64,000 nt of DNA, taken from assembly GCF_007997295.1 (NCBI RefSeq), contig NZ_VORY01000008.1:76596-140595 (forward strand), given 5' to 3'. Positions 7,459 through 30,999 of this stretch are shown piece after piece. The notes below the pieces were generated by a model that saw only the letters and a list, made by a program, of their open reading frames with translations, was not told where the DNA came from and made no database searches. Each line of letters starts with the position of its first letter. The stretch's first letter is position 1. A program made the translations under genes and the position numbers. Origin of the DNA: Gillisia hiemivivida. Its GTDB lineage: Bacteria > Bacteroidota > Bacteroidia > Flavobacteriales > Flavobacteriaceae.

Positions 7459-7459
7459 G

Positions 7460-9406: not shown

Positions 9407-9407
9407 T

Positions 9408-9626: not shown

Positions 9627-9717
9627 TGACAGATTGTGGGTTTTAAAACCAATAATTATACTGTAGATGTTTATTTGATTAGAATTAGGAAGTAGTTGTT
9701 AAACCATTAAATATCAA

Positions 9718-9747
9718 GGATTTCTTATTTGACTGGAATTCGGAAAA
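9718..9747. repeat. 28-bp direct repeat copy 2 (GGATTTCTTATTTGACTGGAATTCGGAAAA), 13 bp before hsdR start
   Basis: It is a direct repeat of 9598-9626. It lies in the hsdR promoter/leader region. Confidence 0.6.
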
Positions 9748-9759
9748 CAAAATTATAGC

Positions 9760-12700: not shown

Positions 12701-12810
12701 AACAGCGAAAAAATGAGCTTGATCTTTATAAGTTATATGCCAAGGACGAAGGCTTCTATCAAGCATTTTTTGATACCATGAAGAGGATGGTTTCTCGAGA
12801 CCGAATTTAA
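9760..12810 (+). CDS. hsdR: Type I restriction endonuclease subunit R (HsdR), SF2 helicase/translocase with DEAH box
   Basis: The N-terminal HsdR_N region carries QILKKGLDVDDAHFTLFYQAP. Walker A SAGSGKS, the DEAH box VIIDEAHSSQ and helicase C motifs are present. The protein is 1016 aa. Confidence 0.9.
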   Translation: MHSQTNEQALEAAIQETLSGTTIEMIKEQNPLANIAEESEQYLLGKGYYIGNPDDFDAKYAIDNRRFWNYLKETQKEELEKLQRHGDWKLKILERLDRMIKKYGVLQILKKGLDVDDAHFTLFYQAPLASSSIRVKKLFENNQFSATRQLRYSVDNPREEIDIVIFINGLPIITAELKNHWTGQNAKVHAQKQYKFDRDIKQPLLNFGRCLVHFAVDTDEIYMTTKLNGENTFFLPFNKGDNNGKGNPVNLNGHKTAYLWEEVLTKKSLANLIQHFVRLDGKSKDPLNSRTLFFPRYQQMDVVREIIDHAAKNGVGQTYLIQHSAGSGKSNSITWAAFQLIESYPQKEGLHGSIGMEKPLFDSVIVVTDRRLLDKQIRDNIKDFSEVKNIVSPAYSSKELRESLESGKKIIITTIQKFPFIIDGISDLSDKRFAVIIDEAHSSQSGSAHDKMNQSMGQKDQEEDEEEDVQDKIIKAMQSRKMRGNASYFAFTATPKNNTLEKFGVKEEDGSFKPFHLYSMKQAIEEGFILDVLANYTTYKSYYEIEKSIEENPLFDSQKAQKKLKAFVESDQRTIDTKAEVILDHFIPNIVNKKKLKGKAKAMVVTQSIISAIRYYKALSRILGEKGNPFKILVAFSGSKTVDGIEYTEADINGFGEKDTKDNFDKDEYRILVVANKYLTGFDQPKLTAMYVDKKLQGVMAVQALSRLNRSADKLGKKTEDIFILDFFNSTDDIKASFDPFYTATSLSGATDINVLHDLKQTLDETGVYEQEEVELFCEKFFLKEDAQKLSPIIDMAANRFNKELELEDEDKADFKIKAKQFVKIYGQMAAIMPYEMMAWEKLFWFLKFLVPKLIVKDKDADDLDKLLESVDLSTYGLERTKLNDSIGLDASASELDPQNAKPRGAHGEKEEDILESIIRNFNEKWFQGWEATPDEQRTKFIQLSKHIQAHQDFQSKVADNGDRQNSDLALEKIIEDVMRKQRKNELDLYKLYAKDEGFYQAFFDTMKRMVSRDRI

Positions 12811-12814
12811 ATAT

Positions 12815-14173
12815 ATGGATAAGAACATTAAGCAAAAATCTATTTTAGATTTTGTCAGTTTTAAATCACCCACCTTAGAGCAAAGGAATGCTTTAATTGC
12901 TATGTCTGATTTTGTTTCAACTTCTAATTCAGAAGATTTTCTTATTCTTAGTGGTGCAGCCGGGACTGGAAAAACATCCATTACCACTAGTTTGATAAAA
13001 TATTTGAACCATCAAAATGTTCAATTTAAAATCGCAGCACCTACTGGCAGAGCAGCCAGAATCCTTGGTAAAAAAGCTGGAGCTACCAGTACAACTATTC
13101 ATTCACTAATATATAATTCTGTATCCGATCCTAATACAGGTGAAGTGAACTTTAAATTGAAACCTAATACGGTTAAAGATTATTCAGTTTATCTTTTAGA
13201 TGAAGCCTCAATGATTTCATCAATCATTACAAATGATGAAGAAAGTTTATTTGTGAGTACGAACTCCCTTCTTAATGATCTTGTGAAATTTGTAAAAGAT
13301 GGAAACCTTCGAAACAAATTAATTTTATTAGGAGATAGAAATCAGTTACCACCCATTCAGGAAGAATATTCCAAAGCTCTTTCTAAATCATATTTGGAGG
13401 AGAATTATCAATTGTCAGGTGAGTCATATAGACTTACAGAAGTTAAGCGTCAGCAAAAAGACAGCTATATTTTAAAGAATGCTGTAACTGTTAGGGAAGC
13501 AATTGATAATAATATGCCCCCGGAAGATTTGGTAGATTTAGAAGTGCAAAGAATGAACACCGCAGCACTGAATTATATCCAGGAGTATAAAAATTATGGA
13601 TTGGAAGGAAGTATCTCGATTGCAGCAACTCATAAAATGAACCAACTCTTTAATAGAATAGTAAGGGAATATATGTATGGTAAGTTTGCGGATGAACTTG
13701 TGGAAAATGATTTGTTACTTATAATTTCTTCATGGAGAAGAAAAGCAAAAGAATTATATAGTGGGGATCACGTAATTGTAAAGAAAATTGATCTTGATGA
13801 AACAGAAATTATTGCTGGGCTAAGATTTGTTCCTGTGAAATTAATGTTTAAAAACTTGTTAGATAAGGAGGAGTTTTTAGATGATTATTTGCTTTTAGAA
13901 TGCCTAGAACAGTCTAAAGGGCTTAATGCAGAGCAAGAAAAAAGATTGCGATTTGAACGATTTAGAGCAAATAAAATATATCAAAAGTCAGGTAATCCGG
14001 CTGATGATAAATATGTAGGAGCTATAAGAGCTACTTATGGACACTCCATTACCTGTCATAAAGCGCAAGGCGGGGAATGGAAAAAAGTTTACTTAAATTC
14101 TTACTATATGCCAAGTTTAAGATACCAGTATACGGCTATTACAAGAGCTAAAGACGAATTGATTTTGTATTAA
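12815..14173 (+). CDS. RecD/Dda-like superfamily 1B DNA helicase (AAA_30 + UvrD_C-like)
   Basis: Walker A LSGAAGTGKTS lies near the N-terminus. SF1 motif VI (ITCHKAQGGEWKKVYL) and YTAITRAKDEL lie at the C-terminus. The start is 4 bp after the hsdR stop. Confidence 0.8.
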   Translation: MDKNIKQKSILDFVSFKSPTLEQRNALIAMSDFVSTSNSEDFLILSGAAGTGKTSITTSLIKYLNHQNVQFKIAAPTGRAARILGKKAGATSTTIHSLIYNSVSDPNTGEVNFKLKPNTVKDYSVYLLDEASMISSIITNDEESLFVSTNSLLNDLVKFVKDGNLRNKLILLGDRNQLPPIQEEYSKALSKSYLEENYQLSGESYRLTEVKRQQKDSYILKNAVTVREAIDNNMPPEDLVDLEVQRMNTAALNYIQEYKNYGLEGSISIAATHKMNQLFNRIVREYMYGKFADELVENDLLLIISSWRRKAKELYSGDHVIVKKIDLDETEIIAGLRFVPVKLMFKNLLDKEEFLDDYLLLECLEQSKGLNAEQEKRLRFERFRANKIYQKSGNPADDKYVGAIRATYGHSITCHKAQGGEWKKVYLNSYYMPSLRYQYTAITRAKDELILY

Positions 14174-14452
14174 ATGATATTAGAAATCACCTTTATACAA
14201 GGCGGAATGCTAGAATTTGAAAGAACAGGTATATATCCCGAATACCTGTTGTTCAATTTAAAAGGTTCTAAACAGAATTGGAGAGTGAAAATTAAGAATA
14301 AACCACAGGAGGGTATTCTAAAAAGTAAGGGTATACCGGTTTATGAATATAGTTTTGATGGACACTGGTGCAAATTTAGAAAAGTCAATAAAAATGCTTC
14401 GATTTCAAAATGGATGGAGCCGGAAACTATAAGTATTGAAAGGAGAGATTAA
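14174..14452 (+). CDS. Hypothetical 92-aa protein, translationally coupled to the helicase (ATG abuts helicase TAA)
   Basis: The ORF begins at the nucleotide after the helicase stop. There is no recognisable domain. Confidence 0.4.
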
Positions 14453-14459
14453 AAATAAA

Positions 14460-17400
14460 ATGTTGAAAACCCAAATCACGAACCCACTAGTTAAATTCAA
14501 TTCTAAAATTGATGCTTACACAAACAAGACAATAAGAAAACATACTTTTTGGTTAGTATTCTTTATTAGTCTATTCTCATCTCAATTCTTATTAGCCCAA
14601 TGTCCTAGCGGGGATGTTACATTAGAAAGTCAGCAACAAATAACTAATTTTGTGGCCACCTATCCTTCTTGTACAAATATAAATGGAAGCCTTTTAGTGA
14701 GAAGTGAAGAGGTTACTGATCTTTCCTTTTTAAAAGATATGATATCCATCAATGGAGATTTGACTATTCAGAATACCAAAGCAATTGAACTTTCACTAAG
14801 CAATCTTGAAAATGTTGATGGTGATTTTAATATTTTCGGAAATTATGATTTGCTTTATGTATGTGTTCCCAATATAAGTTTTATTGGAGGAGGCCTTAAT
14901 TTATTGGGTATGTCCTATGCAAATACCCTTACAGGATTCGATCAAATTAAATCTCTCAAATTTTTTATTTTTGAAGATAACGGGTTTGTAGAAATTTTGC
15001 CAGCCTTTAATAACTTGGAAGTTATATTAGAGGATTTAACTATCATTGCCAATCCAAGCCTAAAAGAGATTCTAGGTTTTCAATCCCTCACCTGCGTAAA
15101 AAATATATCGATTATTGGCAATGAAGGTTTAAAGATTATTAATTCATTTTCATCGATAGCGAGTCTAGTTGGTGATTCTGGTGGATTACGGATCACCGAT
15201 AATCCTATCCTAGAATCTATTACAGGCTTTCAAAGCTTAGAGAGTGCTCAGCATTTAATATTCGATAATAATGCAGGCTCTGGGGCTCCTAATTCATTCC
15301 CTAGCTTCCCTTCCTTGCGCAGTGCAGATCATATTTACTTAACACAGCTCATAATGCCGCAAACCTACACGGCCTTTAATAATCTAGTTCAGATAAATGA
15401 TTTAAAGATTGAATCGCTTAGGAATTTAAAAAGTTTAAAAGGTTTTAATAAAACACAATCCACCAAGAATTTGTGGATAGATAATAACATAGATCTAGAG
15501 ACTATTGAAGGCTTTGAAAATCTTAAGCTAATTAATGGATCATTTAAACTTAGTAATAATATTAAGTTGTTTGAGGTAAATGCATTTAAGTCCGCAGAAT
15601 ATGTTGAGAATGCTTTTTGGTTATTGAATAATAGTTTAACAAATTTCGATTTTCTTGAAAATTTACATGATGTAAGTTCAAATGATTCAGATATTTTTAT
15701 ACAGGCTATGCCAACACTTCAGGATTGTTCTGGTCTTTCCAATCTTCTAAAATATGGTAGTATATCTAATAATATTAATGTCTCTACAGGTGCCTTTGGT
15801 TGCAATACTAGAGCAGATATTGAGGCGGCAGCAGATACCGATAAGGATGGAATTTTAGATGTTAACGATTTAGATGATGACAATGATGGTCTTAGGGATC
15901 TTGAAGAAAATGCTGGGAATGAGTTCTTAGATACCGACGGGGATAACTTGCCAGACCATGTAGATCTTGACAGCGATAATGATGGATGCCCGGATAAAGA
16001 AGAAGGTATTCTGTTTTTTCAGCAACCTACTTTATCCCCTCAGATAACGAAAAATCCTGAGTTTTTGGAGGTGAGTGCTGGCAATTCTGCAAGCTTTTCC
16101 GTAGAAACCATTAATGCAGATAGGTTTCAATGGCAGGTTAGTAAGGATAACGGAAATACTTGGGAAGATATTGATGCAAATACTATTTATAGTGGAGTTA
16201 AAATTTCTGTGCTAACAATTCAAAATACCACGAAAGAGTTTCATAATTATTTGTTCCGTGTTAATATTTCTAATAGTGGAAATTCCTGTACAGCTCAAAT
16301 CACTTCTTATTTTGCTTCGCTAATTGTGAAATCAAGTGTTTTAGGAGATCCAGGAGAAGATACACAATTAGAATTCTGCCCTTCCTCAGGGAAAATTGAT
16401 CTTTTCTCCTTAATTGAGGGCACTCCGGAAAAAGGAGGGCAATTTAGTCCACCATTAAATAGCGGGACTTCTGTGTTTGATACTTCGATGGATGCTGAAG
16501 GAACCTATCGCTATTGGTTTAGAGATGATAACTGCCAAACAGCAAAGTCAGAAATTTCTATCAGTTTTAATGATACTCCAACGGCAGGGTCAGATGGAGA
16601 ATTAAGTATTTGTAAAAGTTCAGCCCCTGTAGATCTATTCACTATACTTAACGGCACACCTACTGCTGGAGGTACTTGGTCTCCTGCTTTATCTGGTGGA
16701 GAAAGTGTATTTGACCCTAAGCTTGACAGCAGCATAAAGTACACATATACTGTAGGCGCTACAAATTGCAATCCAACTTTTGCGGAGGTGGTTATAAATT
16801 TAATAGAAGAAGAACCTAATGCGGGAGAAGACGCAAGCCTTGAGCTTTGTGAAAATGATGGGCCTATAGATCTAAAACCTTTATTAGGACCAAATGCAGA
16901 TGATAATGGCGAATGGACACCAATTTTAATAAATGGCATCTTCGATCCGAAAGTGAATGACAGCGGAATCTATGAGTATAAAATTGATAATAAAACTTGT
17001 GGGGTAAGTTCCTCCTTTGTAACGGTTACGGTAAATTCTATTCCTGATTCGGGGGTTTCAACTTCCATATCATTATGTGAAAATAGCCCAATAGTTGACC
17101 TTTATGATATTCTAGGGCCTAATGTAGATAGAGATGGTAAGTGGTCTCCACCATTACTTAATGATAATGGAACTTTTAATCCACAACAGGATTCCCCGGG
17201 AATCTATACATATAAATTGAACAACAATTGCGGCAGTTCCAGTTCTGAAGTAATAATTGAATTAGACGCGAATGTCTCGATTAATAATTATGAAATAAAC
17301 ACTTCAGAATTTAATGAAAATGCATTTTTAGAGATAAACGTTTTGGAAATAGGGAATTTTGAATATTCCCTTGACGGTGAAAATTATTATGCTAGTAATA

Positions 17401-17741
17401 GATTTTTAAACCTATCTGGAGGTGAACACCGAATTTTTGCCAGAGAAGTGGACGGGTGCAGAACCTTATCAGATTCCGTTATGATCCTTGATTTTCTTAA
17501 AGTTTTTACTCCGAATGGTGATGGCATTAATGAATATTGGAAAATTACTGGATTTGAAGGAGAAGTATATGAGATTTATATATATGATCGTTATGGAAAA
17601 CTATTAAAGGTACTGAACCCAAACGATAAAGGTTGGGATGGAATTTTTAATGGTAAACCTATGCCTGCAGATGATTATTGGTTCAAAGCACAAATGGCAG
17701 ATGGGAAAACATATGGAGATCACTTTTCCTTGATTAGGTGA
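14460..17741 (+). CDS. T9SS type B sorting (gliding-motility C-terminal, CHU_C) domain surface protein with leucine-rich/receptor-L-like repeats and thrombospondin type 3 Ca-binding repeats
   Basis: The C-terminus [16 protein letters not shown]...[13 protein letters not shown]...[21 protein letters not shown] is the T9SS type-B sorting domain. An N-terminal signal/anchor ([18 protein letters not shown]) is present. DxDxDG repeats run [26 protein letters not shown]...[19 protein letters not shown]. The track gives a TTG start at 14436; the ATG at 14460 is the more likely start. Confidence 0.8.
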
Positions 17742-17765: not shown

Positions 17766-19730
17766 TTATTTACATACTTCTCTTAAATACTCATAGATCA
17801 TAACCATAGCTAGGGTGTCTAATTCACAATAGCGCAGTAATCCTTTCTTAATAGCTGCTCGTTCTATTTCCGGGACGTCCGGGAACTGTAATTTGGCATA
17901 AGCAAACAAAGCAGCTCCACCATCTTTAATTTCAGTTAGACTTTCTGAAACTTGCTCTAATTTTTCATTGTCCCATCCATCAAAAAGTGGAGGTAATGCT
18001 TTATAAGGATTAATGGGTTTCCCATTCTCCATTTCACAAAACACATGATCCATGTCAAAATTCTTACTTGTTAAGTCAATGGTAGTTAGTTTGTTTTGAT
18101 ATTTCTTCTGAAGATATTCACTAGAACCTAGAACTGCAGGTAAAATGGCTTTTATGGAATTGGAACCTCCTGTTGATGGATCGTAATAGTAATTCACCAC
18201 GGTTTTTTGAAGGTCTATCATATCCCTTTCGCCACACCATGACTTGGCGTTTTTACCAGTATTATGACTTATGCTTTCAATAAATTCTAGCAACTCTTGT
18301 TTATCAAGCTCCTTAGATTTTAGTAACTGATTATAGATAACATTTACAATGGTGTTTTCATGATTGTGGTATCTGAAAATACTGCCTTTATTTTCAGAAA
18401 GAGAATCTCTTAAGGCACGAATAAAATCGAAGTTGGGGATTACTCCAATTTCTGTATTTAGATATTCATTGTGATGTACTACTCTGCCATCTTCATATAC
18501 TATATGATGACTAAACTGAAAGGCTATCTGTTCATATGGTTTCATACCAGCCATAAAAGGAATGGCAACCGCAGTGGTTTCAAAATCGATAAAATTCAAT
18601 GGGAATTTCCAAGAATCCAGTTCCATCCTTAAGTTTTCTATATCAAAATAGGGAGTAGCATCGTCTTCTTGATGTTTACTTATCTGAAGCCATTGGCGTT
18701 CGGAACGGCTCATTTTGCCGGCTTCGGGGCGAATGTTGAGGTCATTCTCTGTTAATTCATCCATAAAATACCGACCTTCCTCTATCGCATTTTTCACAGG
18801 ATTGTACCAAACATTATATACTTTAGGACGGTCTATTTTATGATCTGGAAGTTGAAGTTGTTCCCTCCAACATTCGTGAAAGCCACTTTTATATCCCTCT
18901 GCTAAATCTCTAACCTGGAATTCACAGCCTTTACAATGAGCACCTATTTCAGTAAATAACTTTATATCTTCCTGATAATGCTTTTTAAAATGAGCAAGCG
19001 TTTCTGTGAAAGAGCTATTGGTATCTATGGGGTTATCTTTTAGAATGAGATCCACTTCCGCGCTTACATTTAATAAGCACAAAATAGGATCTCCAATGTC
19101 ATCTTTAGTAAGTCCTTCTCTTTTCTCAATACCAGTTCGTAATTGTGAATCGGCAACCACTTTAAAGCATTGGTGTAATCCATCCACGGTAGTAATCGCA
19201 TTCTTATCGACTAATTTGAGATAGGATGTAATTTGCCATTCCGGATAGCATAAATGCATTACATGTTTTTGAAAAGCAATATCATATAAGTAGATATCCC
19301 AGCCGCCACTCAAATTGCCTTTGGAATTTATAAAAGAATCATGTGAGTTGCTATTGATCGATTTGGCTTTAACCTCTATTAGTCTGATCTTATTTCCTTT
19401 TTTCTCTAAGATGTCTACTCTGATAAAAAGACCATCTATTAGAAAAGCAGGTTCGAAGATGGTCACATTCTCCTGCTTTAATAATTCCGCTGTTTTATCT
19501 GCCAGTAACTGATAATTATAATCTTTACCCAGAATAGCAATTCCAGCTGGATGATCCATCCTTGCCAATTCTTCAACCTGAAATCCACCTTGCGCCAAAC
19601 CTTCCAAAAATGAATCTGTTTCACTTTGGTTCTCATACTCACTCTTACGGGTGTAGAAAAGCTTTGTTGGACAATCTAAAGCCAGTTTAAATCGGGATTT
19701 GGTAAGATATCTTCTTTTCAGATTTTTCAA
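17766..19730 (-). CDS. Putative nuclease: N-terminal PD-(D/E)XK (RecB/Cas4-like; DUF2779-like) domain protein with possible C-terminal DEDD-like exonuclease motif
   Basis: The N-terminus LTKSRFKLALDCPTKLFY is DUF2779-like. Motif II GLFIRVDIL and motif III RLIEVKAKS form the D...E-x-K triad. A Cys cluster CKGCEFQ...HECW follows. A later FIDFETT resembles the Exo I motif of DnaQ-like exonucleases. Confidence 0.55.
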   Translation of the reverse strand: MKNLKRRYLTKSRFKLALDCPTKLFYTRKSEYENQSETDSFLEGLAQGGFQVEELARMDHPAGIAILGKDYNYQLLADKTAELLKQENVTIFEPAFLIDGLFIRVDILEKKGNKIRLIEVKAKSINSNSHDSFINSKGNLSGGWDIYLYDIAFQKHVMHLCYPEWQITSYLKLVDKNAITTVDGLHQCFKVVADSQLRTGIEKREGLTKDDIGDPILCLLNVSAEVDLILKDNPIDTNSSFTETLAHFKKHYQEDIKLFTEIGAHCKGCEFQVRDLAEGYKSGFHECWREQLQLPDHKIDRPKVYNVWYNPVKNAIEEGRYFMDELTENDLNIRPEAGKMSRSERQWLQISKHQEDDATPYFDIENLRMELDSWKFPLNFIDFETTAVAIPFMAGMKPYEQIAFQFSHHIVYEDGRVVHHNEYLNTEIGVIPNFDFIRALRDSLSENKGSIFRYHNHENTIVNVIYNQLLKSKELDKQELLEFIESISHNTGKNAKSWCGERDMIDLQKTVVNYYYDPSTGGSNSIKAILPAVLGSSEYLQKKYQNKLTTIDLTSKNFDMDHVFCEMENGKPINPYKALPPLFDGWDNEKLEQVSESLTEIKDGGAALFAYAKLQFPDVPEIERAAIKKGLLRYCELDTLAMVMIYEYLREVCK

Positions 19731-19790
19731 GAGGAGATTATTAATTTGAAGATAGGGACTTCTTATTAAACCATTTTTTGCTATTTTTAT

Positions 19791-20678
19791 CTACATCCAG
19801 TTTACTAAAAAGCCCATTACAACAATATTTGCTACCAAAGTCATTACAATGAAGTTGGTGAATCTTTTATGAGGTTTCAAGTCGGAGACAAAAGTGTCCA
19901 TTCGCTTCATCACCTGATCCTCCATATTACTAGAGACCTTCCTTTTTGACTCTTCTACTATTTCAACAATAATATCTCCAAAAGGAAGAAACTCAAATAA
20001 TAACAAGACTGGTTTCCTTACTATTCCTGGAACTTTGAAATTGGATGACTGAATTTGAGAATTTCCATTCTTTTTCAGAACCTCATGAATTTTATGTTTT
20101 TTCAATTTTTCAGAGCCATGAAGTTCTAATTCGTTGATGCATGTGGTAATCAAGTTTTTGAAAAAAGCTGTAAATAGGTGATAAACTCCAAGTCCAATCT
20201 TAAATTGAGCATACTTATAACATTTAAAAGCGGCAAGGCCAGAAAATGTTATTCCACCTATTATTAGTCCTAGAATTAAGAGAAGATTGAAATAGGCGAA
20301 TTCAGTAAACAGAATCCATACACCATAAATCATGAATATTATATTTACAGAGAAAAAAAGAATTGCTACTATTGAAACATTAAATATGACATTACTAGCT
20401 ATTTTCTTGCTTTCTGAAATAACCTCTCTTGAAGAGGCTTCAACATAATTTATAGCTTTCTTCACCCTTTCTGATTCAATAGTTTTTTTACCTACAGCAA
20501 TGGCACTTTTAGTGGTTACATTAGTAAAAGTGGAAATATCTTTTGATGAAACTCCAATAATAGAAATTGTTTTTTTTACCATATCTGACTCTACAGTCTT
20601 TTTGCCTGTATCAGTAACCTTACTAGAAATAATGCTACCTAAATTAATGACTTTTTCCGAGTTGGGTGATTTGAACAT
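19791..20678 (-). CDS. Hypothetical integral membrane protein (2-3 TM helices in the central region)
   Basis: Hydrophobic stretches are NVSIVAILFFSVNIIFMIYGVWILF and LLLILGLIIGGITFSGLAAF. It lies 60 bp upstream of the nuclease gene and is co-oriented with it. Confidence 0.5.
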   Translation of the reverse strand: MFKSPNSEKVINLGSIISSKVTDTGKKTVESDMVKKTISIIGVSSKDISTFTNVTTKSAIAVGKKTIESERVKKAINYVEASSREVISESKKIASNVIFNVSIVAILFFSVNIIFMIYGVWILFTEFAYFNLLLILGLIIGGITFSGLAAFKCYKYAQFKIGLGVYHLFTAFFKNLITTCINELELHGSEKLKKHKIHEVLKKNGNSQIQSSNFKVPGIVRKPVLLLFEFLPFGDIIVEIVEESKRKVSSNMEDQVMKRMDTFVSDLKPHKRFTNFIVMTLVANIVVMGFLVNWM

Positions 20679-21139
20679 GAGTTTGAGCTTTAGATTAATT
20701 GAAATATATTAAATATTCTATGGTTATGTTTTGAGCTATTAGTCAAATCATCAAAGAAAAATAAGCAGCAACGAAAAAAATATTTATCAATTGGTAAGTG
20801 TATATGGCCTAAATAAAGATTCTTTAATCCTAGCGCTTTTGCTAACTGATGCCAGAATTTTATTATAAAGTAAGAATGCTTTTTCAGAGGTATCTGAAAA
20901 AAACGTATTAAGGTCCCTCATTTTAATTGTAGGTTAAGTGATTTTAAGGTAGGGACTTAAAAGTTTTTAAATATATAATTTTAATCCTAATAGTTTGATG
21001 GAAATCCATAAACCAATCAATATTTTTTAAAACCGCCTTATATTCAATCAATTCTTATTGCCCTACCAATAAATATCAAAACATCAATAAAGCGGTTATA
21101 TTTTCAAAACTATTATTTACGTATGTCAAGACATGTCGC

Positions 21140-22030
21140 TTAATAATTTTTTAAAGCATTTTCTAACTGATTCCGAATTTGCTTTTGGAGACTATTTGGT
21201 TCCAGAACTTTTACCTGATCTCCATAGGAAAGTAGTTCCATTTTAAAATCGTAGGTAGGTCTAATGAAGTAATTAAACTGATATTCATTATCATTTTTGG
21301 AAATGAGCTTCTGGCTTCTATGTAGCGGAAGGGATTCTACATATCTGCCTTCTCTAGCCGTGAATGAAAGAATGACATCAATCGGTTTTTCATTGGTTCC
21401 ATTTATTATCCCGAAACTATCCTTAAATTCTTGATGTGCGTTGTATTGAATTGGTTTGAATTTGGTTTCAGTTATTAGGAGGGACACAATTCTATCTAGG
21501 GCAAAATTCTTGATTATATTATCTGCGTCTTCAGCTATTAGATACCACCTGTTTCTTGCTTCCTTTAAAGCAATGGGCATAACCTCTCTTTTGCTGTCTG
21601 TATCATCATAAAATTTATGATAGTCAAATTTCACTTTTAAACCATTTTGAATAGCATTTAGAAGCCCTGCCATATTCTGAGTTCCTAATGATCTTCGCTC
21701 TTCAAATACTAAACTATTTCCTAAGCTTTTAGAAAGTCGAATTGCATTTAAGATCTCAAAATTTTCACGCAATCTTTGGGAATGTGTTTCTTCCAGATCG
21801 TCCTTTATAAAGTATTTTTTATTACTTCGATCAGATTCAATTTCAATTCCATAGATGGATGCTATATCGAGTATATCTCTTTGGAAAGTTCTTTGAGAAG
21901 TCATTAAACTTTCTTCTCTGGAGTCAGGATCCATGTTCATTTCATCTTGAACTTCATCATATCCCAGAGGTCTTAACCTTAAAAGAGAAATAATTTTGTA
22001 ATGACGTTTGATGGTTTGGCGTACAGACAT
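21140..22030 (-). CDS. wHTH-WYL-WCX transcriptional regulator (BrxR/CapW-like defence-island regulator)
   Basis: The WYL signature is NRWYLIAEDADNIIKNFALDRI. An N-terminal HTH-like region (RHYKIISLLRLRP) is present. The length, 296 aa, is typical of the BrxR family. Confidence 0.7.
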   Translation of the reverse strand: MSVRQTIKRHYKIISLLRLRPLGYDEVQDEMNMDPDSREESLMTSQRTFQRDILDIASIYGIEIESDRSNKKYFIKDDLEETHSQRLRENFEILNAIRLSKSLGNSLVFEERRSLGTQNMAGLLNAIQNGLKVKFDYHKFYDDTDSKREVMPIALKEARNRWYLIAEDADNIIKNFALDRIVSLLITETKFKPIQYNAHQEFKDSFGIINGTNEKPIDVILSFTAREGRYVESLPLHRSQKLISKNDNEYQFNYFIRPTYDFKMELLSYGDQVKVLEPNSLQKQIRNQLENALKNY

Positions 22031-22040: not shown

Positions 22041-22532
22041 TTAATAACAAAGTTTAGAAAAGAAGATTGCAGTTTGAGTCTCGAATAGGTCTAAAGGTAT
22101 TCGATGCCCTAATCGAGGATCTATATGAAGGTCTATTTCTTCTTTATCAATGTAGTTCCCTAAGAAAGCTAAAGTCTCCTTAGGATCCACGACATCATCA
22201 ATGCCTCCTAAAACAATCTGCTTATAGGAATTTCCTTTAGTGTAATTAGAATTAATAGTATGCTTGTCTTCATATTTAGCTAATGGTGGATTAAACAGTA
22301 AGCATGGTCTGCCTATGCTGTCTGAAATGATATAAGAATTTAGAGCTCCCATGCTACTTCCAATAATCACATTGATCTCAATATCTTTAAGCTTTTCCAA
22401 AATTAATTTTGGTTGAATATGTTCAATACTGTAATCAATATCGGGGGCGTAAACATTTCCATATTTTTCAAGTATCGCACGTTTTTGATCATTCAATTTG
22501 CTGTTAAGTCCATGTAAATAAAGTATGTTCAT
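22041..22532 (-). CDS. YqiA/UPF0227-like alpha/beta hydrolase (esterase)
   Basis: The N-terminus is ILYLHGLNS and the nucleophile elbow is GSSMG. The protein is small, 163 aa. Confidence 0.55.
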   Translation of the reverse strand: MNILYLHGLNSKLNDQKRAILEKYGNVYAPDIDYSIEHIQPKLILEKLKDIEINVIIGSSMGALNSYIISDSIGRPCLLFNPPLAKYEDKHTINSNYTKGNSYKQIVLGGIDDVVDPKETLAFLGNYIDKEEIDLHIDPRLGHRIPLDLFETQTAIFFSKLCY

Positions 22533-22534: not shown

Positions 22535-22849
22535 TTATTTGCTTAATTGTTTCTTAGTAAGATCACTTCGATAGGATTTTCCATCTTTAGGCCAATTCCA
22601 TTTGTTGGAGATCTCTTTTAGTTGGGGTAATTCGATTTGTGAGTCTGATAACTTTTTCTTGACCAGGCGTCTTAGTTTTCTATTTGCTTTTAGCTTTTCT
22701 TCCTTTTCAGAAGATGCCAGGCAGTTTCCTAAAATTGGTAGTTTTCTTCTCGATCTACTCATCTTCTCTAATTCTATAAAACAAATAAAACCAATTAGAG
22801 CGACAAAATATGTCGGCACTAGAATTAATTTGAGTTCATTTCTTTTCAA
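22535..22849 (-). CDS. Hypothetical small basic protein with N-terminal TM helix
   Basis: It begins LKLILVPTYFVALIGFICFI and is followed by a Lys/Arg-rich tail. It lies 2 bp upstream of the hydrolase gene. Confidence 0.35.
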   Translation of the reverse strand: MKRNELKLILVPTYFVALIGFICFIELEKMSRSRRKLPILGNCLASSEKEEKLKANRKLRRLVKKKLSDSQIELPQLKEISNKWNWPKDGKSYRSDLTKKQLSK

Positions 22850-23491
22850 TACCAGGGTACAAGCTCGATATCGCTTAACCTACTAAAGATTATTAATCTG
22901 AATAGTGCAACATAAAGCACTTTTTAGATATCAACGCTTCACAAAACAACAAACACATCCAAATAGTGCATTAAAAGGCACTTATGACATATTTTTTAAT
23001 AGAGTTTTTTATTACAGGTTCCATCTTATTTACCAAATTGTTTCCCTAAAGAAACGCTTAAATAAATATTCAGAAAAAACACACATTGCTATTGATTTTC
23101 ACTTAAACATTCCTCAGATAAATTCCGCCAATTAAATGTTCTGACCCGATATGAAACATAGCGATTCATAAGTAGTTTTTATCAAAACATATTAAATAGA
23201 TACTATGAAACCGATATTCTTTATGAATATTCATATTTCAAAAGAGTTGTAGGAAGAATGATTGTTATGCAAAGATCACAAATTCCTAATCAAGAATCTA
23301 AAACATAATTTTCTACTACAATGCCCCCAAATCTACCAGAACTAACCTGCGCGTGGTTCCTGTGCTGTTTTTATAGCGTTCGGGAAGATAAGCGTTAAGT
23401 AAAAACAGCAGAGGGCGCAATTGTGCTATGATTTGAAACTGAATTTCTTTTTTTTCTACTCAAAATTAAACTACAGAAGAAATTGTTTGAT

Positions 23492-23854
23492 TTATTTATA
23501 AAAATCGGGATGTGTATCATCCTCTTCATAGGCTTTTTTCTCACGATACAGAGGTTTGTTTCTTAGATTTGCCCCATTTATAAGATTAAGAAGAATTTTG
23601 AGCGTAGGCTCTAAAGAATCTTTTTCCATTTTACGTAACAGTGCTTCCAGAGCATCCATTCTTTTATTGAAAATATGCAGTAATCTATTATTAGTAAGAG
23701 GGAATGGCTTAAAGGGAGAGATATAATTCTTGTCAAAAAAGTCCAGCATCGCTTCTAAGGTTTCAGTATAATTCACCTCATTTTCTACGGCGTATTTTTT
23801 AAAGCGTTCTACCGTTTCGGAATGAAAGTTAATTCGGGAGAAATTCTTGCTCAT
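23492..23854 (-). CDS. Hypothetical protein (mobile-element associated)
   Basis: This is a 120-aa ORF isolated between long AT-rich noncoding stretches. There is no motif. Confidence 0.35.
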   Translation of the reverse strand: MSKNFSRINFHSETVERFKKYAVENEVNYTETLEAMLDFFDKNYISPFKPFPLTNNRLLHIFNKRMDALEALLRKMEKDSLEPTLKILLNLINGANLRNKPLYREKKAYEEDDTHPDFYK

Positions 23855-24443
23855 GGTTTCTTTTTTTTAAAGATTAGGATAATTGGTTGTACTGTTTATA
23901 AGGCCTGCCGACCAATTGCGGTAAATATTGTAGTTGGAATGGTTTTATAATCTTCAGAACACCTATATAAAATACTGATATTCAATTACTTATGAGAAAA
24001 TGAGAATAACTTAACATCGCGTAGCGTGTTATCCTCTTGCTACTCATTTTCCTTCGCTTTCAGCTCATCAAAAGAGTACTTTTTTAGTGATTACTATCCT
24101 TAATTTTCTCTGTTTAATGCAGCACTCAAAGAATATTATTTGACTGCCTTTGTATCAATTTGAAAATTAAGTTAGTAGTGCAATTTTCGATTTTTTGATT
24201 AGATTTTGAAGTTAACTGTCTTATAATTATCTACTAAATTACTTTCAGAAAAACGACAGCGAACTCCAACCATAATTTTCTATAAATAATTTTAAAGTTC
24301 GATTTTCGTTCTTATTTCAATCTGCTTTTCTGTTCAAAATATTGGTTGGTGTTCAAGATTTTTACAGACGAACCTCTTTTTTCTAAGATGTTCTTTTTAA
24401 ACATCGGGAAAAATGTGGTGAGGACTTATTTTATAAATCATCC

Positions 24444-25109
24444 TTATTCTCTCCAGCTTTTCCCTTCCCATTTAATGATATTAAACATTTCCGGCAGTCG
24501 ATCTCCAATATGATTTCCATATCTCGCAGTTATGGCCGATGGATTTTCATTCGTAGTTACAAAAGTTTTAAACTTCCGGTGGTGTCTTTCAAAAAGTAGC
24601 TTTCCAATTATTTCTTCCCTGTTGTAAGCCTTATCTTCTTTTCCTAGATCGTCCAGGTATAGCTTTCCTCGATAATAATTTTCCAGTTTAAAATTGCTGC
24701 TTGGATGTTTCTGAGATTTATAATACTGATTAAGCATATCTATGGTTGATATGCGCGGAAACCATAATTGGGTATTTTGGGTTTTAGTAACGATTGTTCT
24801 TCCAACTTCATGAATGGTATTAAAGAGCGTGGATTTTCCAACTCCGTAATCTCCATATACCAATAAACCTTTATCCAGATCAGCCTTATTTTTAATCACT
24901 CCGTAATCATTGAAATCAGGTTGGTGCAAAAAATACCTGAAAACACTGTAAATTATTTCTTTGTTTTCAGGTTTTATGATGAATTGAGGAGCATGAAATC
25001 GGAATAGCTTCCAAAAAAGTTGTTTGGTAATCAAGGATTGATGATGACTATTAACTTTTACCGATGCGGAGGTTTTTGATGAAACCAGTATTGTATTTGA
25101 ATTAATCAT
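24444..25109 (-). CDS. P-loop ATPase, DnaC/IstB-like helper (replication module of integrated element)
   Basis: Walker A is GDYGVGKST and the Walker B-like motif is KLYLDDLGKE. It overlaps the upstream gene by 8 bp. Confidence 0.5.
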   Translation of the reverse strand: MINSNTILVSSKTSASVKVNSHHQSLITKQLFWKLFRFHAPQFIIKPENKEIIYSVFRYFLHQPDFNDYGVIKNKADLDKGLLVYGDYGVGKSTLFNTIHEVGRTIVTKTQNTQLWFPRISTIDMLNQYYKSQKHPSSNFKLENYYRGKLYLDDLGKEDKAYNREEIIGKLLFERHHRKFKTFVTTNENPSAITARYGNHIGDRLPEMFNIIKWEGKSWRE

Positions 25110-25908
25110 AGCTTTTAATTTTATCCTGAACTCTTATGTCCATTTCTTTAATTTCCACATACTTTTTTCCCTGTGCGATAAGCTGACTTATTTTTTCCCG
25201 AAGTTTATTAGTGTCCAAAATGATCCCTTTCCAGAATTCATCTTTATGAAGCAGCTCATAAGCGAGCTGTAAATGTGTTTCCGTAATCCCATCATTTATT
25301 AGCATTTTCCGAACAGGCTCTACGAAATCTTCAAAACTGGCCTCTTTCATTTTTTTCAATGGCGCACCTTTATTTTTTAAATTCTGCAGAAATAACTCCT
25401 GAAATTTAATCGCCCAATTGAATGACAGTTTTTGATCAAAACCAACTTCAAAATCTTTGATTTCCATTAATGGCTTCTTTTCTAAAGTTTCAAGGTTTAT
25501 AGTTTTATTGTTTGCTTGTTTATCTATACTAGCAATGCCTTGGCAAGTGCCATGGACTTGCTTTATATAATGGCTGGACATTGCTTTATCTAATGCTTTT
25601 AGAACTGGCTTGTCATTTTTTACCAAAGCAATGATATTGGCGGTGTACTGATTTTTGCTTTTCTGAATCCATTTTATGAAACCCCAATCTGCTAGATCTT
25701 GTAGTGCACAGATATAGGTTTTATAATTTTTGATGCCCAGGGCTTCCATTGCTAGATCAGTGGGAAAACCAAATTCCTCTTTCCATCCCAACCGATTGCA
25801 GCGTTCGATGGCAAAAAAGTAAATAGCGGTATGGTTGGGTTTTATCTTATGAGTGTTTGCGAAACTAAAATCGAACCATGTGCGGGAAAATTCGTAGCCA
25901 GTCATCAC
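25102..25908 (-). CDS. Putative replication initiation/primase-associated protein of phage/ICE type
   Basis: It sits between an excisionase-like HTH gene and a DnaC-like ATPase in an overlapping operon. There is no catalytic motif, so the call is contextual. Confidence 0.3.
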   Translation of the reverse strand: MMTGYEFSRTWFDFSFANTHKIKPNHTAIYFFAIERCNRLGWKEEFGFPTDLAMEALGIKNYKTYICALQDLADWGFIKWIQKSKNQYTANIIALVKNDKPVLKALDKAMSSHYIKQVHGTCQGIASIDKQANNKTINLETLEKKPLMEIKDFEVGFDQKLSFNWAIKFQELFLQNLKNKGAPLKKMKEASFEDFVEPVRKMLINDGITETHLQLAYELLHKDEFWKGIILDTNKLREKISQLIAQGKKYVEIKEMDIRVQDKIKSYD

Positions 25909-25909
25909 T

Positions 25910-26140
25910 CTAAGAATTAGATTTATTTAGTAGCCAGGAATTCAGTTTTTCCTTTTCGAAATAGATCAACTTTCCTCGGGGTTTGCAATAGGGAATTTTT
26001 TCAGTAGAGGTAAGCTTATACATATAACTTCTTGAAATACCAGTATACTGGCAAGCTTCTTCCAAGGTTAGAACTTCTTTGTTTGCCAGAAGCAGTTGCT
26101 CAATACGAATCAATCGATCCTCTAGTTGTAAATCATCCAT
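25910..26140 (-). CDS. AlpA/Xis-family (MerR-like) helix-turn-helix DNA-binding protein, excisionase-like
   Basis: TLEEACQYTGISRSYMYKLTSTEKIPYCKPRGKLIYFEKEKLNSWL is a typical excisionase/AlpA HTH. The protein is 76 aa. Confidence 0.65.
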   Translation of the reverse strand: MDDLQLEDRLIRIEQLLLANKEVLTLEEACQYTGISRSYMYKLTSTEKIPYCKPRGKLIYFEKEKLNSWLLNKSNS

Positions 26141-26254
26141 AATTTCTATTTTTTATAAAGCCAACAAGTCTTGTTGTCTTTTGATTATAGAAACAAATGA
26201 ATAACGAAAATCCCTGAAAATCAATAGGGTAAGTCGTGGTCTAGTGGTAATACC

Positions 26255-26980
26255 TTATAAATTCTTTTTGAGAAGCGCGGAAATATTCTCTAGATAGGAG
26301 GATTTGTTGTTTTTCCAATCGTAAATATTTTTTGTTGAAAAAGTCAATTCTTTTCCTTCAGAATTTTTCAGAATGAAGTAATAATTTGTTAATTCTATCA
26401 TTTGTTGATTTTCCAAATTTTCAAATCCTACCAAAATTTGACTTAGAAATTCCAACAAGGTTTGGCGGTTTACTTGTTTAGGTAATTTATAAGAAGAATC
26501 TTTCCATACCAATCGTTTCAATCTTGAAACTGGTTTTAACTGAATAAAAGCTTGAAAGGTTTGATAGTCTCCACTTAAATGATTTTCTGAAAATGCTTTA
26601 AAAATATTATTTACTTGAACCTCATTTAAAGGAATGGCATTTAGGTCAAATTTCTTTATTTCATCTTCAGCTAAGCTAAATACCTCCAATGTATTAGAAT
26701 TCCTTCTAACCCTCTTTTGTGTAATATGAAAGTACATTACAGAAGCACATATTAGTAAGCACAATATGAATATAAAAGTGAATACAATTTGTGCCCAAAA
26801 AGCATAGGGAGTAATCCATACATAATACAAAAGCAATGTTAGAAGGAAAACGCAACCCAAAAAAAGAAGAGGACCAATTTGAGAATTTGTTTCTCGAATG
26901 AGATAATTGAGAAAAGTATCTAGCTTTTCCTTCGCTTGAAGTGAAAAAATTGCAATCCGCTCTAAAAACATCCTTATCAA
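26255..26980 (-). CDS. Hypothetical membrane protein (two N-terminal TM helices)
   Basis: Hydrophobic stretches are LLFLGCVFLLTLLLYYVWITPYAFWAQIVFTFIFILCLLICASVMYF. Confidence 0.45.
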   Translation of the reverse strand: MIRMFLERIAIFSLQAKEKLDTFLNYLIRETNSQIGPLLFLGCVFLLTLLLYYVWITPYAFWAQIVFTFIFILCLLICASVMYFHITQKRVRRNSNTLEVFSLAEDEIKKFDLNAIPLNEVQVNNIFKAFSENHLSGDYQTFQAFIQLKPVSRLKRLVWKDSSYKLPKQVNRQTLLEFLSQILVGFENLENQQMIELTNYYFILKNSEGKELTFSTKNIYDWKNNKSSYLENISALLKKNL

Positions 26981-27060
26981 TCTTACTATTAGCTAATTAA
27001 AGATAATAAAAAGAAGAAATAATTAAGCTTTTAAATACTTGGTTACATGAATTTCAAAAA

Positions 27061-27150
27061 GTAAGAAGTACTTCGCCCTCACCTATCTTGGTAAGAATAT
27101 CTTTGTCACAAAGATCTTGCAAATCTTTGGTCACAGTTGTTAGGAGTTTT
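27061..27150. repeat. Diverged direct copy (A) of the 3' end of the fic gene (last ~30 codons), non-coding remnant
   Basis: The reverse-complement translation ...DLQDLCDKDILTKIGEGRSTSY resembles the Fic C-terminus ...DLQDLCDKGILTKEGGGRSTSYY. It shares a ~50-bp left flank, from ~27031, with copy B. Confidence 0.7.
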
Positions 27151-27229
27151 TGGTCAGGAATTGTTTTTTAGTGTGTTCATTCCTTTAAAAAGAGTTCTAA
27201 AAACTCTACTTTAATAATTACCACTGAGC

Positions 27230-28039
27230 TTACAACCACTCCAATTGAAAACTTACGTTATAGCCATATTCTTCATTCCTTAGATTGATTTCGGTGGGTT
27301 TTGTATCCCTGTAATCGTTAAGCCGAATGATTAATTCTTGCGAACTCCTTGCAAGGTCTTGTCCAACACCATTTCCGTCATCATCCCCAATTCCAAACTC
27401 AATTGTAGAACGGTCCGAAATATAAAGTTCCTTTTGGGACAAATCCCACTCTAGTTGTTGCTGATTTGGATATATTGGGGAAAGGTACCATAACCTCATA
27501 TCAACAGTGGCTTTCGAAAAATGTATATTTTTTAATTTGTTAAGTGAAAAAATTATATCGGCCATTCGGTTTGGGTCGTCTTCAGCATATTCTTCGTCCC
27601 AGTTGCCATTCATGTTATAAAACGAATTGATCCGGAAGCCAATAACCTTCACCGCATTTCCGCGAGTAACATTAAAATTCAGGGTTTTTGTTGTTCTTTT
27701 TCCGCTGATACTGGTAAACTCCAACTTCACTTCTTCGTTACCTAAATATCCAAATTGGAAGTGCAGATTAAGATTTTGCTCATCTAGCGAAGTACCGGGC
27801 ATTGCTGCCGTAATACTCTGAGAGCCATTTTCAAAAATTCTGGTGATATCATAAATATCTTCGTTAGATTGTACCTTAACTTCAAAAGGTATATCCACTG
27901 TTACTTCAGTTACAGAAGGTGTAAGGTTTACGTTGAAAATTTTTTCAATTTCAGGAAGCTGTTCATTTGCGGAATCAGGACTACACGAAAAACCAAGTGT
28001 TAGCACCCATATCAGTAAGATTTTTTTTCCCATATTCAT
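27230..28039 (-). CDS. Lipoprotein (signal peptide + lipobox Cys), unknown function
   Basis: The N-terminus is MNMGKKILLIWVLTLGFSCSPDS. It lies between repeat copies A and B. Confidence 0.5.
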   Translation of the reverse strand: MNMGKKILLIWVLTLGFSCSPDSANEQLPEIEKIFNVNLTPSVTEVTVDIPFEVKVQSNEDIYDITRIFENGSQSITAAMPGTSLDEQNLNLHFQFGYLGNEEVKLEFTSISGKRTTKTLNFNVTRGNAVKVIGFRINSFYNMNGNWDEEYAEDDPNRMADIIFSLNKLKNIHFSKATVDMRLWYLSPIYPNQQQLEWDLSQKELYISDRSTIEFGIGDDDGNGVGQDLARSSQELIIRLNDYRDTKPTEINLRNEEYGYNVSFQLEWL

Positions 28040-28335
28040 TTTTAAGAAAAACTGAATAAATGTATAATAAAAAAGGATTCGAAAAGTATTATAATTTGAG
28101 ATTTAAAGAAATTATTTTTTTGGACTGAGGAACCTTTACAGTGCTTCTTTTGTAATTACCATTCAATCTTTGGATTTCTGAGTGATATTACTTCACTAAA
28201 GCTTAGTTTTTTCGATTAAATTTTATGAGCCGAATAGAAAATTCTTCTTCCTCAGATTTATAAAGATATCAAGCTGATTAAAAAATTTATTAGAAGCATA
28301 TGTTTTTAAATACTTGTTTGCATGAATTTCAAAAA

Positions 28336-28427
28336 GTAAGAAGTACTTCGCCCTCCACCTTCCTTGGTGAGAATACCTTTGTCACAAAGATCTTGTAAGT
28401 CCCTTGTGGCTGTTGGTTTGGAGGTTT
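28336..28427. repeat. Near-identical direct copy (B) of the fic 3' end (91/92 identical to 38994-39085)
   Basis: It matches the real fic 3' end exactly except one base (gtaagtccc vs gtaaatccc). It has an A-like left flank. It forms a hybrid att-like junction. Confidence 0.8.
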
Positions 28428-28796
28428 GGTGTATTTGAGTGAGGCCTTAAGTATTTTGATATTTTCGCATTTCAAATTTTCACATAATAACTATGGGAGA
28501 TCAGAAAAAGCACAAGGGAAATAAAACACCCCAAACTACAAATCATAATATTTTCCAGAGTTCGAATATTCATCAGCATAGAGATGCCCATAATATAAGT
28601 TATCAAAAAAATCGTGAAACTTATGATCTTAAAGGTCTTCCTTACTTGCATAGCTGAAAGTTTAGGAAATAAATTTAAAAATAAACAGCCTTATTCATTG
28701 AAAATTAAAGTCATATAATCTTCATGTTATTGTTAAGGGAGAGAGGCTATTTGATTAAGGGTTATGTAAATAAGGGCGATAGATGAAATTTAATGC

Positions 28797-30268: not shown

Positions 30269-30280
30269 AAATCTAAAATT

Positions 30281-30997: not shown

Positions 30998-30999
30998 CT

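Follow-up and report, generated by a model that had tools for sequence, protein, structure and literature searches.

Organization of the locus

Within a 64,000-nucleotide (nt) stretch of Gillisia hiemivivida DNA, which we refer to as the window, we analysed a block at positions 17766–22030 that lies entirely on the minus strand and encodes a transcription regulator with WYL and WCX domains, a membrane protein, and a nuclease of the DUF2779 family (PF11074). The main subject of this report is the recurrent pairing of the regulator gene with the nuclease gene, together with the defence-rich surroundings in which the two are found. These genes belong to a run of five consecutive minus-strand open reading frames (ORFs) whose products comprise 104, 163, 296 (the WYL regulator), 295 (hereafter TM295) and 654 (the DUF2779 protein) amino acids (aa). 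The original prediction, made from the sequence alone, had grouped the last three as one defence system, and the three ORFs and the 461-bp gap that it described are indeed present on the minus strand. The features of the block and of the genes directly upstream are as follows.

17766–19730, minus strand: DUF2779-family dual nuclease (predicted), 654 aa, TTG start (ORF and Pfam)
18831–19730, minus strand: putative Cas4-like PD-(D/E)XK domain with a predicted Fe-S cluster, residues ~1–300 (motifs and model; published family reading, PMC13621843, PMC3985635)
17766–18608, minus strand: putative DEDDy exonuclease domain, residues ~375–654, the portion that Pfam labels DUF2779 (Pfam, motifs and model)
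19731–19790, no strand: 60-nt spacer 5' of DUF2779
19791–20678, minus strand: TM295, lineage-restricted membrane protein, 295 aa (ORF, hydropathy and repeats)
20679–21139, no strand: AT-rich 461-bp gap from the WYL gene to TM295, part of a 1.4-kb indel
20820–20921, minus strand: 34-codon N-terminal remnant of a ~226-aa gene (tblastn)
21140–22030, minus strand: winged helix-turn-helix (wHTH)-WYL-WCX transcription regulator, 296 aa (Pfam, PADLOC and PDB profile matches)
22041–22532, minus strand: YqiA/UPF0227-like alpha/beta hydrolase, 163 aa, with a GSSMG nucleophile elbow (Pfam; NCBIfam below cut-off)
22535–22762, minus strand: conserved basic protein, 75 aa (cluster c21), in an ORF extendable to 22849 (104 aa)

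The conserved core of the 104-aa ORF (22535–22849) is its last 75 aa, and this 75-aa protein had no family match in profile searches. The 75-aa ORF lies 2 nt upstream of the YqiA-like gene, which in turn lies 10 nt upstream of the WYL gene. With these two genes directly upstream, the WYL gene is not obviously the first to be transcribed, as had originally been proposed.

Among the neighbours of DUF2779, only the WYL gene is widely conserved

We collected 80 genome loci containing DUF2779 relatives from across the Bacteroidota (47–88% identity), which together with the window make 81 loci, and clustered all ORFs within ±10 kb. Most of the resulting neighbour clusters were singletons, and the contexts of DUF2779 are highly variable. 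With the exception of the WYL gene, which was found in 46 of the 81 loci, no neighbour is widely conserved; the next commonest were HsdR (19 loci) and the YqiA-like hydrolase (18 loci), the latter preceding the WYL gene in some cases and directly following DUF2779 in others. In 65 of 79 loci, DUF2779 and its upstream neighbour point in the same direction.

The two genes occur in two arrangements, both with spacing like that of an operon. In the first, the WYL gene is upstream of DUF2779. Their start and stop codons overlap in four loci (L012, L013, L017 and L020), and elsewhere they are separated by gaps of 11 nt (L029), 14 nt (L016), 83 nt (L051), or 141–183 nt (L001, L027 and L025). A variant of this arrangement has genes wedged between the pair, namely PDC-M15A/B (L024, L030 and L033) or PDC-S26-type nucleases (L023 and L034), with junctions that overlap or span no more than 16 nt. 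Other wedged genes encode an AAA ATPase (L002), PcfJ-like proteins (L015 and L032), a 191-aa protein (L022), and, in the window, TM295. In L003, the intervening gene encodes a cREC_REC protein and lies on the opposite strand. In the second arrangement, DUF2779 is followed at a distance of -14 to +4 nt by the WYL gene, then by a gap of ~100 nt and a known system. The systems at this position comprise a CBASS cyclase with a TIR protein (L058, L078 and L080) or with TRIP13 (L062 and L063), Pycsar PycC (L054), and E1/E2/JAB ubiquitin-like genes (L053, L055 and L066).

Pairwise distances among the DUF2779 proteins co-vary with those among the adjacent WYL proteins (r = 0.83; none of 2000 Mantel permutations reached this value), a result that is compatible with co-inheritance of the pair at the sequence level and that may also mirror shared species phylogeny. 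In a reciprocal search, WYL proteins were used as queries against metagenome contigs. Close WYL homologues (≥62% identity) almost always had a YqiA-like gene directly upstream, and DUF2779 followed 0.2–4.3 kb after the WYL gene in 7 of the ~12 contigs with enough flanking sequence. The remaining contigs carried methyltransferase, Type I restriction-modification (R-M), paired GTPase or DUF262 genes, or genes for small acidic proteins. Around more distant WYL homologues, DUF2779 was mostly missing. Gene turnover is concentrated in the interval that follows the WYL gene.

DUF2779 is predicted to be a fusion of two nucleases

The Pfam DUF2779 profile matches residues 380–525 of the 654-aa protein (83.3 bits against a cut-off of 23.3 bits; E = 2e-23), and PF11074 is present in 120 of the 120 homologues listed. 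The family is large, with 5,796 relatives among 90% clusters. Clustering at 50% identity leaves 5,476 representatives within an E-value limit of 1e-3 and 703 within a limit of 1e-30; most are full-length and ~650 aa long. Across 53 homologues sharing 59–88% identity, the PD-(D/E)XK triad of D106 (GLFIRVD), E119 and K121 (IEVKAK) is invariant, as are four cysteines (C20, C266, C269 and C287; spacing CX2CX17C) that are predicted from the sequence to bind an Fe-S cluster. Also invariant are D382 and E384 of the Exo I motif (FIDFET) and Y634 and D638 of the Exo III motif (Y-x3-D, RYCELD); for the Exo II acid, E458 in HNHEN, likewise invariant, is a tentative candidate. The GLFIRVD, IEVKAK and FIDFET motifs and the Cys cluster named in the original prediction are thus real, with the correction that the catalytic Asp is D106 and not D105.

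In the predicted structure, strands 101–104, 107–111 and 114–125 carry D106, E119 and K121. Structural comparison of the model indicated that the N-terminal fold resembles the nuclease domains of Cas4, AddB or Dna2, and that the C-terminal half adopts an RNase H-like exonuclease fold. PD-(D/E)XK profiles (PDDEXK_1 and Cas_Cas4) and RNase_T had no match to the protein at E ≤ 0.01. The earlier description of a DUF2779-like PD-(D/E)XK nuclease captured the two-nuclease fusion, which both the motifs and the model folds support, and misplaced the label, as the Pfam DUF2779 match falls on the DEDD exonuclease half and outside the PD-(D/E)XK half. Based on motifs and modelled folds, we confidently predict that the protein joins a Cas4/RecB-like PD-(D/E)XK nuclease to a DEDDy 3'-5' exonuclease.

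This architecture has already been published. Majorek et al. (2014) placed DUF2779 in a clade of 3'-5' exonucleases and described its fusion to a PD-(D/E)XK-like domain (PMC3985635), and a 2026 paper describes MMSYN1_0389 as a Cas4-like plus DEDDy protein that is quasi-essential in JCVI-syn3.0 (PMC13621843). M. bovis, too, depends on a family member when grown in cell culture (PMC7373297). Our literature searches found no paper tying DUF2779 to defence or to WYL regulators.

High identities among the homologues at first suggested that DUF2779 is a housekeeping core gene of the Flavobacteriaceae. We rejected this reading because its contexts are highly variable and rich in defence genes, and because congeneric species carry variants at both 77–88% and ~50% identity.

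The regulator is a wHTH-WYL-WCX protein

The 296-aa regulator matches the Pfam WYL (3e-13) and WCX (6e-11) profiles. In PADLOC it matches generic WYL models only, of which PDLC01457 spans residues 8–281. Searched against solved structures as a single sequence, it matched PafBC (5e-9). With a family profile, PafB/PafBC scored best (5e-15), in an alignment that begins at residue 1 and includes the N-terminal HTH, followed by DriD (3e-11), BrxR of E. fergusonii (7qfz; 2e-6), CapW (2e-5), and Acinetobacter BrxR (7t8k; 0.09). By its sequence the protein can be assigned as a bona fide wHTH-WYL-WCX regulator, in agreement with the original prediction; its placement there as BrxR-like is too specific, and we rejected membership of BrxR itself because PafB/PafBC and DriD score better than BrxR and CapW.

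Binding of single-stranded DNA (ssDNA) to CapW and BrxR derepresses defence genes (PMC11662680, PMC13622015). PafBC and DriD are reported to be activators of damage responses that bind ssDNA, and every characterised relative of the regulator responds to ssDNA, CapW and BrxR as repressors and DriD and PafBC as activators.

We noted a palindrome, AGTGC-N8-GCACT, that occurs in two copies 61 bp apart (22904–22921 and 22965–22982), upstream of the string formed by the 75-aa ORF, the YqiA-like gene and the WYL gene. These are the only two copies in the 64 kb, against an expected 0.02. The pair is kept in the 90%-identical L001 (positions 8010 and 8071) and is absent from the other orthologous loci. 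As it is conserved only in this nearest relative, we rejected the palindrome pair as evidence of an operator, and no operator is claimed here.

Separately, certain genes are repeatedly found divergent from the WYL gene, encoding either a 683-aa protein with AAA and M41-peptidase domains or an IetA-like AAA ATPase of ~547 aa (L012, L013, L017, L020 and L034; L015, L016, L051 and L070). This arrangement recalls divergent promoters of the CapW type.

DUF2779 genes are found among defence genes and on plasmids

At least 55 of the 81 loci contain a recognised defence gene within 10 kb; this figure is a lower bound, because singleton genes were left unannotated, and a raw count that has no matched random-gene control. 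The Type I R-M and GmrSD island that the original prediction placed next to the block is likewise real. In loci without an adjacent WYL gene, the genes directly upstream of DUF2779 include DRT3a/b (five loci), SoFic (three loci) and a GmrSD pair (two loci), and in the two GmrSD loci a WYL gene lies ~2 kb downstream. In L065, which has the WYL gene after DUF2779, the genes immediately 5' of DUF2779 are Septu PtuA/B; Shango SngB/C and Wadjet JetA are found just downstream of DUF2779 in other loci.

In the five DRT3 loci (L039, L040, L044, L047 and L064), the spacer between drt3b and DUF2779 is constant at ~125 nt. A conserved element, for instance the DRT3 non-coding RNA, might lie within it.

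Searches with tblastn identified DUF2779 homologues on 30 plasmid records and none on phage records. On the Aliarcobacter butzleri plasmid p63, the gene order is PD-(D/E)XK, DUF2779, WYL. The PD-(D/E)XK proteins of p63 and of an Arcobacter plasmid are members of PDC-S26, and PDC-S26 proteins are encoded directly beside DUF2779 in nine Bacteroidota loci as well as on these two Campylobacterota plasmids, all of them mutually homologous. On other plasmids, DUF2779 forms co-directional operons with SMC/SbcC-like ATPases, with a metallophosphoesterase, with a set of helicase, ATPase and PLD genes, or with a 5'-nucleotidase adjoining Type I R-M. Plasmids of Selenomonas and Aliarcobacter carry DUF2779 together with SbcC/SbcD-like genes. 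On the conjugative Prosthecochloris plasmid pPAES01 (L081, 4691–12059), genes for an SOS-response-associated peptidase, a zincin-like (ArdC-type) peptidase, H-NS, a thermonuclease and a TOPRIM protein are found near DUF2779, with transfer genes close by; these surroundings resemble a leading-region or anti-defence neighbourhood.

A recurrent pair with a proposed slot for variable cargo

On balance, we favour the explanation that the WYL regulator and the DUF2779 dual nuclease, often joined by the YqiA-like hydrolase, form a recurrent, co-inherited frame within defence islands that offers a slot for variable cargo, and that TM295 is the cargo at present in the slot of the window. We hold this view with moderate confidence, and the defence function of the pair is suggested through guilt by association. 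By analogy with its relatives, the regulator would sense ssDNA arising from infection or DNA damage and alter the transcription of the co-directional genes. The nuclease would then attack linear DNA in both directions, with the Cas4-like domain acting 5'-3' or endonucleolytically and the DEDDy domain acting 3'-5', and so degrade or process it as a shared effector or an ancillary nuclease for whichever cargo is present. TM295, if it participates in defence at all, would act independently. The DNA beside the WYL gene behaves as such a slot, with a decayed gene remnant and TM295 in the window and known or candidate defence cassettes elsewhere.

Several observations weigh against this explanation. 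No WYL gene is found within 10 kb of DUF2779 in 35 of the 81 loci, and DUF2779 is missing beside ~5 of 12 close WYL homologues whose flanks are long enough; as each gene often occurs without the other, the pairing is frequent and obligate in neither direction. In the window itself the coupling is loose, with gaps of 461 and 60 nt between the genes. To these must be added the phylogenetic component that the Mantel correlation may contain and the uncontrolled nature of the defence-gene count. Our inverted-repeat search of the spacers for a WYL operator found nothing convincing. No model in PADLOC-DB 2.0, that for Cas4 included, matches the DUF2779 protein at E ≤ 0.01; a distant Aliarcobacter member of the family does match the PADLOC Cas4 model at 2e-6. 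The requirement for family members in mycoplasmas (PMC13621843, PMC7373297) implies a housekeeping role in nucleic acid metabolism there, and no experiment connects DUF2779 with defence.

The foremost alternative, which we judge unlikely, is that the pair is a DNA-damage or repair module in which a WYL activator of the PafBC/DriD type senses ssDNA and induces a repair or end-processing nuclease, the module being mobile and simply co-located with defence genes. The profile scores, which place the regulator nearest PafB/PafBC and DriD, fit this alternative, as do the mycoplasma phenotypes, the SOS-response-associated peptidase near DUF2779 on the Prosthecochloris plasmid, and the SbcC/SbcD-like genes on the Selenomonas and Aliarcobacter plasmids. 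It accounts less readily for the patchy, accessory distribution of DUF2779 in variable contexts, for its overlapping-codon operons with PDC-S26 or PDC-M15, and for the finding that its WYL partner is immediately followed by CBASS, Pycsar and ubiquitin-like cassettes.

Quite improbable, in our view, is a second alternative, in which the nuclease generates the signal: restricted or broken invader DNA would be converted into short ssDNA that serves as the ligand of the WYL regulator, making the pair a portable sensor-amplifier that switches on the adjacent cargo. Such a role would agree with a constant pair beside varying cargo, and with reports that short ssDNA releases WYL repressors while the source of the infection-specific ssDNA cue is unexplained (PMC11662680; PMC13622015). 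Two exonuclease polarities in one protein would, moreover, be expected to yield ssDNA products. The model is purely inferential, however, and it sits uneasily with the many WYL loci that lack DUF2779 and the many DUF2779 loci that lack a WYL gene. Exonucleases also release mononucleotides rather than oligonucleotides, unless the protein makes endonucleolytic cuts too. If true, this alternative would provide WYL-controlled immunity with a dedicated source of an infection-specific ssDNA cue (PMC13622015).

Comparison with known systems

The protein in the window shares its family, two-domain architecture and catalytic residues with other members of DUF2779/PF11074, which is family F.17 of the RNase H-like superfamily and includes MMSYN1_0389 of JCVI-syn3.0. 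The Bacteroidota clade keeps all four putative Fe-S cysteines, whereas the mycoplasma protein has two (PMC13621843). The gene described here is accessory, located in a defence island and paired with a WYL gene, in contrast to the quasi-essential, chromosomal mycoplasma gene.

Members of the BrxR family co-localise with diverse defence islands (PMC9122601), and WYL-regulated defence loci (BrxR-BREX, CapW-CBASS and WYL-DdmDE) likewise place a wHTH-WYL-WCX protein beside variable defence systems. The regulator of the window bears only a distant resemblance to BrxR and CapW and stands nearer to PafBC and DriD; in addition, it has a constant nuclease partner, which is no described feature of the BrxR and CapW loci.

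The Cas4 and Cas2-DEDDh nucleases that process prespacers in CRISPR adaptation combine the same two folds, which here reside in one polypeptide, and the spacing between the third and fourth Cys, CX2CX17C here, differs from CX2CX5C. Neither cas1 nor cas2 turned up in our survey of ORFs and families in the window or when the genes of the 81 loci were clustered; no search aimed at CRISPR arrays was made. UvrD-Cas4 fusions (PMC5704561) offer another parallel, as they also contain a Cas4-like nuclease that recurs beside R-M and WYL/HTH regulators and have been proposed to be ancillary in multiple defence systems. Their Cas4-like domain is of a different lineage and is partnered by a superfamily 1 (SF1) helicase rather than by a DEDD exonuclease. 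Finally, the PADLOC candidate PDC-S26 is a PD-(D/E)XK protein like the DUF2779 N-terminus, but a separate one. It is listed in PADLOC as a single-gene candidate without DUF2779, and it has no homologue in the window.

The domain architecture of DUF2779 and the presence of WYL regulators beside defence systems are thus already known. The searchable literature apparently contains no description of the recurrent WYL–DUF2779 pairing across two phyla, and PADLOC 2.0 does not list it. The same holds for the frequent link of this pairing to PDC-S26, for the filling of the cargo slot by known systems, and for the association of DUF2779 with defence islands. WYL regulators are emerging as a common switch of many bacterial immune systems, and DUF2779, with thousands of proteins bearing two intact nuclease active sites, has no entry in defence catalogues. 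The pairing and its slot offer a two-gene candidate and a route to new cargo genes like TM295 in the Bacteroidota, a phylum that is under-represented in defence studies.

TM295 is a lineage-specific insertion in the slot

The N-terminal part of TM295 contains two ~35-aa repeats; its hydrophobic helices comprise two or three in the centre and one at the C-terminus. These three or four helices bear out its original description as a membrane-spanning protein. It has no Pfam, PADLOC, NCBIfam or PHROG match. Among 5.8 billion proteins we found 10 homologous clusters, from sources of the Gillisia, Salegentibacter and Salinimicrobium type, one of which is 100% identical and named Gillisia hiemivivida. 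An AlphaFold2 model built from the 10 homologues was poor (mean confidence score, pLDDT, 48.8).

The locus of Gillisia sp. JM1 (L001) is collinear with that of the window, with 90% identity over the 75-aa ORF, the YqiA-like gene and the WYL gene, and 86% over DUF2779. The gap and TM295 together make up 1,426 bp in the window, at a position where L001 has 164 bp; in L001 the WYL gene and DUF2779 are only 144 nt apart. The AT-rich gap, first described as promoter-sized, does exist at 461 bp, and it holds the decayed N-terminus of a ~226-aa gene (20820–20921; tblastn, 50% identity, E = 8.5e-6 against the whole window). An intact copy of this gene, which has no Pfam match, closely follows the WYL gene in G. 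mitskevichiae L004 (6884–7519), in L097 (7605–8285), and in L110 and L007. In L004 the WYL gene and DUF2779 are ~4.8 kb apart, with six or seven ORFs between them.

TM295 lies between the WYL gene and DUF2779 in none of the 80 genome loci, leaving the window as the single case. It was found elsewhere in one of these loci, L002, where it lies ~4 kb downstream of DUF2779 on the opposite strand. In three other contexts, DUF2779 is 4–5 kb away in two and missing in the third (L085), and TM295 has no fixed neighbour. The islands that hold its homologues contain Type I R-M, KAP NTPase and GmrSD genes and an IS3 element, and the DNA upstream of TM295 is not conserved among TM295 loci. Given the few relatives, the position of the indel and the lack of a fixed neighbour, we consider TM295 to be cargo of the island and no component of the pair. 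The sequence comparisons indicate that it is a lineage-specific insertion into the slot, and that the YqiA-like gene is the more conserved companion.

These results bear directly on the original prediction of a dedicated three-gene system, in which a WYL repressor would control TM295 as a membrane sensor or effector and DUF2779 as a dual-nuclease effector. The three genes are adjacent and co-directional in the window, TM295 homologues occur on three other contigs within a few kb of DUF2779 or R-M/GmrSD genes, and the slot that TM295 occupies holds operon-embedded partners in other genomes. Against this stand a family of ~10 members, the gap with its gene remnant between the WYL gene and TM295, and the arrangement in L001, the closest genome, where the nuclease gene is conserved without TM295, an outcome that had been named in advance as refuting the prediction. 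We therefore regard a three-gene system as very unlikely indeed; the triad is the wrong unit, and the first reading is corrected accordingly to a pair with a cargo slot.

Short sequence elements surround the insertion. The last ~30 nt of the 60-nt spacer, CCCTATCTTCAAATTAATAATCTC, are common to Gillisia sp. JM1. The motif AGTCCCTAYCTT flanks the TM295 cassette on both sides and is shared only with L001. On the minus strand, AGTCCCTAYCTTMAAAT occurs once in the gap (~20940–20957) and once just upstream of DUF2779 (~19743–19760), and the 144-nt spacer of L001 contains the related copies TCCTACCTTA and CCCTATCTTCAAAT, ~70 nt apart. The copies of AGTCCCTAYCTTMAAAT that flank the TM295 cassette could be promoter elements or a recombination site. 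A scan of 17.5–23.3 kb for sigma-70 promoters and terminators gave counts equal to those in shuffled sequences, a type of scan that is ill-suited to Bacteroidota promoters, and an Rfam scan of 17–24 kb gave no match.

Wider setting of the block in the window

Two larger features flank the block.

228–14452, plus strand: flanking defence island, comprising Type I R-M genes (hsdM, hsdS and hsdR) with RhuM/PDC-S05, a 321-aa ORF and two GmrSD-type genes as inserts, PDC-M16A and a 92-aa ORF (Pfam and PADLOC)
23492–29552, minus strand: mobile-element-like module, comprising a DnaC-like loader, a DnaD-like organiser, an HTH_17 excisionase-like protein and a CI-like HTH + S24 repressor

In the first, hsdM, hsdS and hsdR (228–12810) are interrupted by RhuM (PDC-S05), a 321-aa ORF (4937–5902), a DUF262/DUF7834 protein and a full GmrSD gene; for the 321-aa ORF within this operon no annotation was obtained. 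An RecD-like SF1 helicase that matches PDC-M16A (1e-89) and an abutting 92-aa ORF follow at 12815–14452. Homologues of the 92-aa ORF are found near DUF2779 in six other loci.

The second module accompanies the block in L001 and in the metagenome contigs L094, L095 and L103; beside it, L001 has a gene that by eye resembles a PAS sensor kinase. In L004 the block is flanked by efflux genes, without the DnaC/DnaD module. At ~29.8 kb the GC content increases from ~0.33 to ~0.42, and no integrase bounding the island was found in the window. Overall, the left ~30 kb of the window has the appearance of a mobile island loaded with defence genes.

That the pair serves the mobile element instead of host defence, through island or plasmid maintenance, slot-creating recombination or counter-defence, is hardly credible: the block does abut the DnaC/DnaD/Xis/CI-like module, and homologues do occur on the 30 plasmid records, with the pPAES01 copy among H-NS, zincin-like peptidase and TOPRIM genes near transfer genes, but the 81 loci show no conserved tie to integrases, relaxases or annealases, L004 lacks the replication module, and phage homologues are missing.

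Between the defence island and DUF2779, a gene at 14436–17741 converges on DUF2779; its product, 1,101 aa long, ends in a CHU_C domain of the type IX secretion kind, and the gene is conserved at this position in G. mitskevichiae L004. Beyond the island, a CesT_Tir_1/PspA/Band-7 gene set with a 1,630-aa ORF spans 29873–38870 and is followed by a Fic + DUF4172 protein of SoFic-like architecture (38973–40079). Further along, six ORFs of near-equal length (~790–810 aa), possibly paralogues, are located on the minus strand at 42455–57905 among ORFs of ~220–250 aa.

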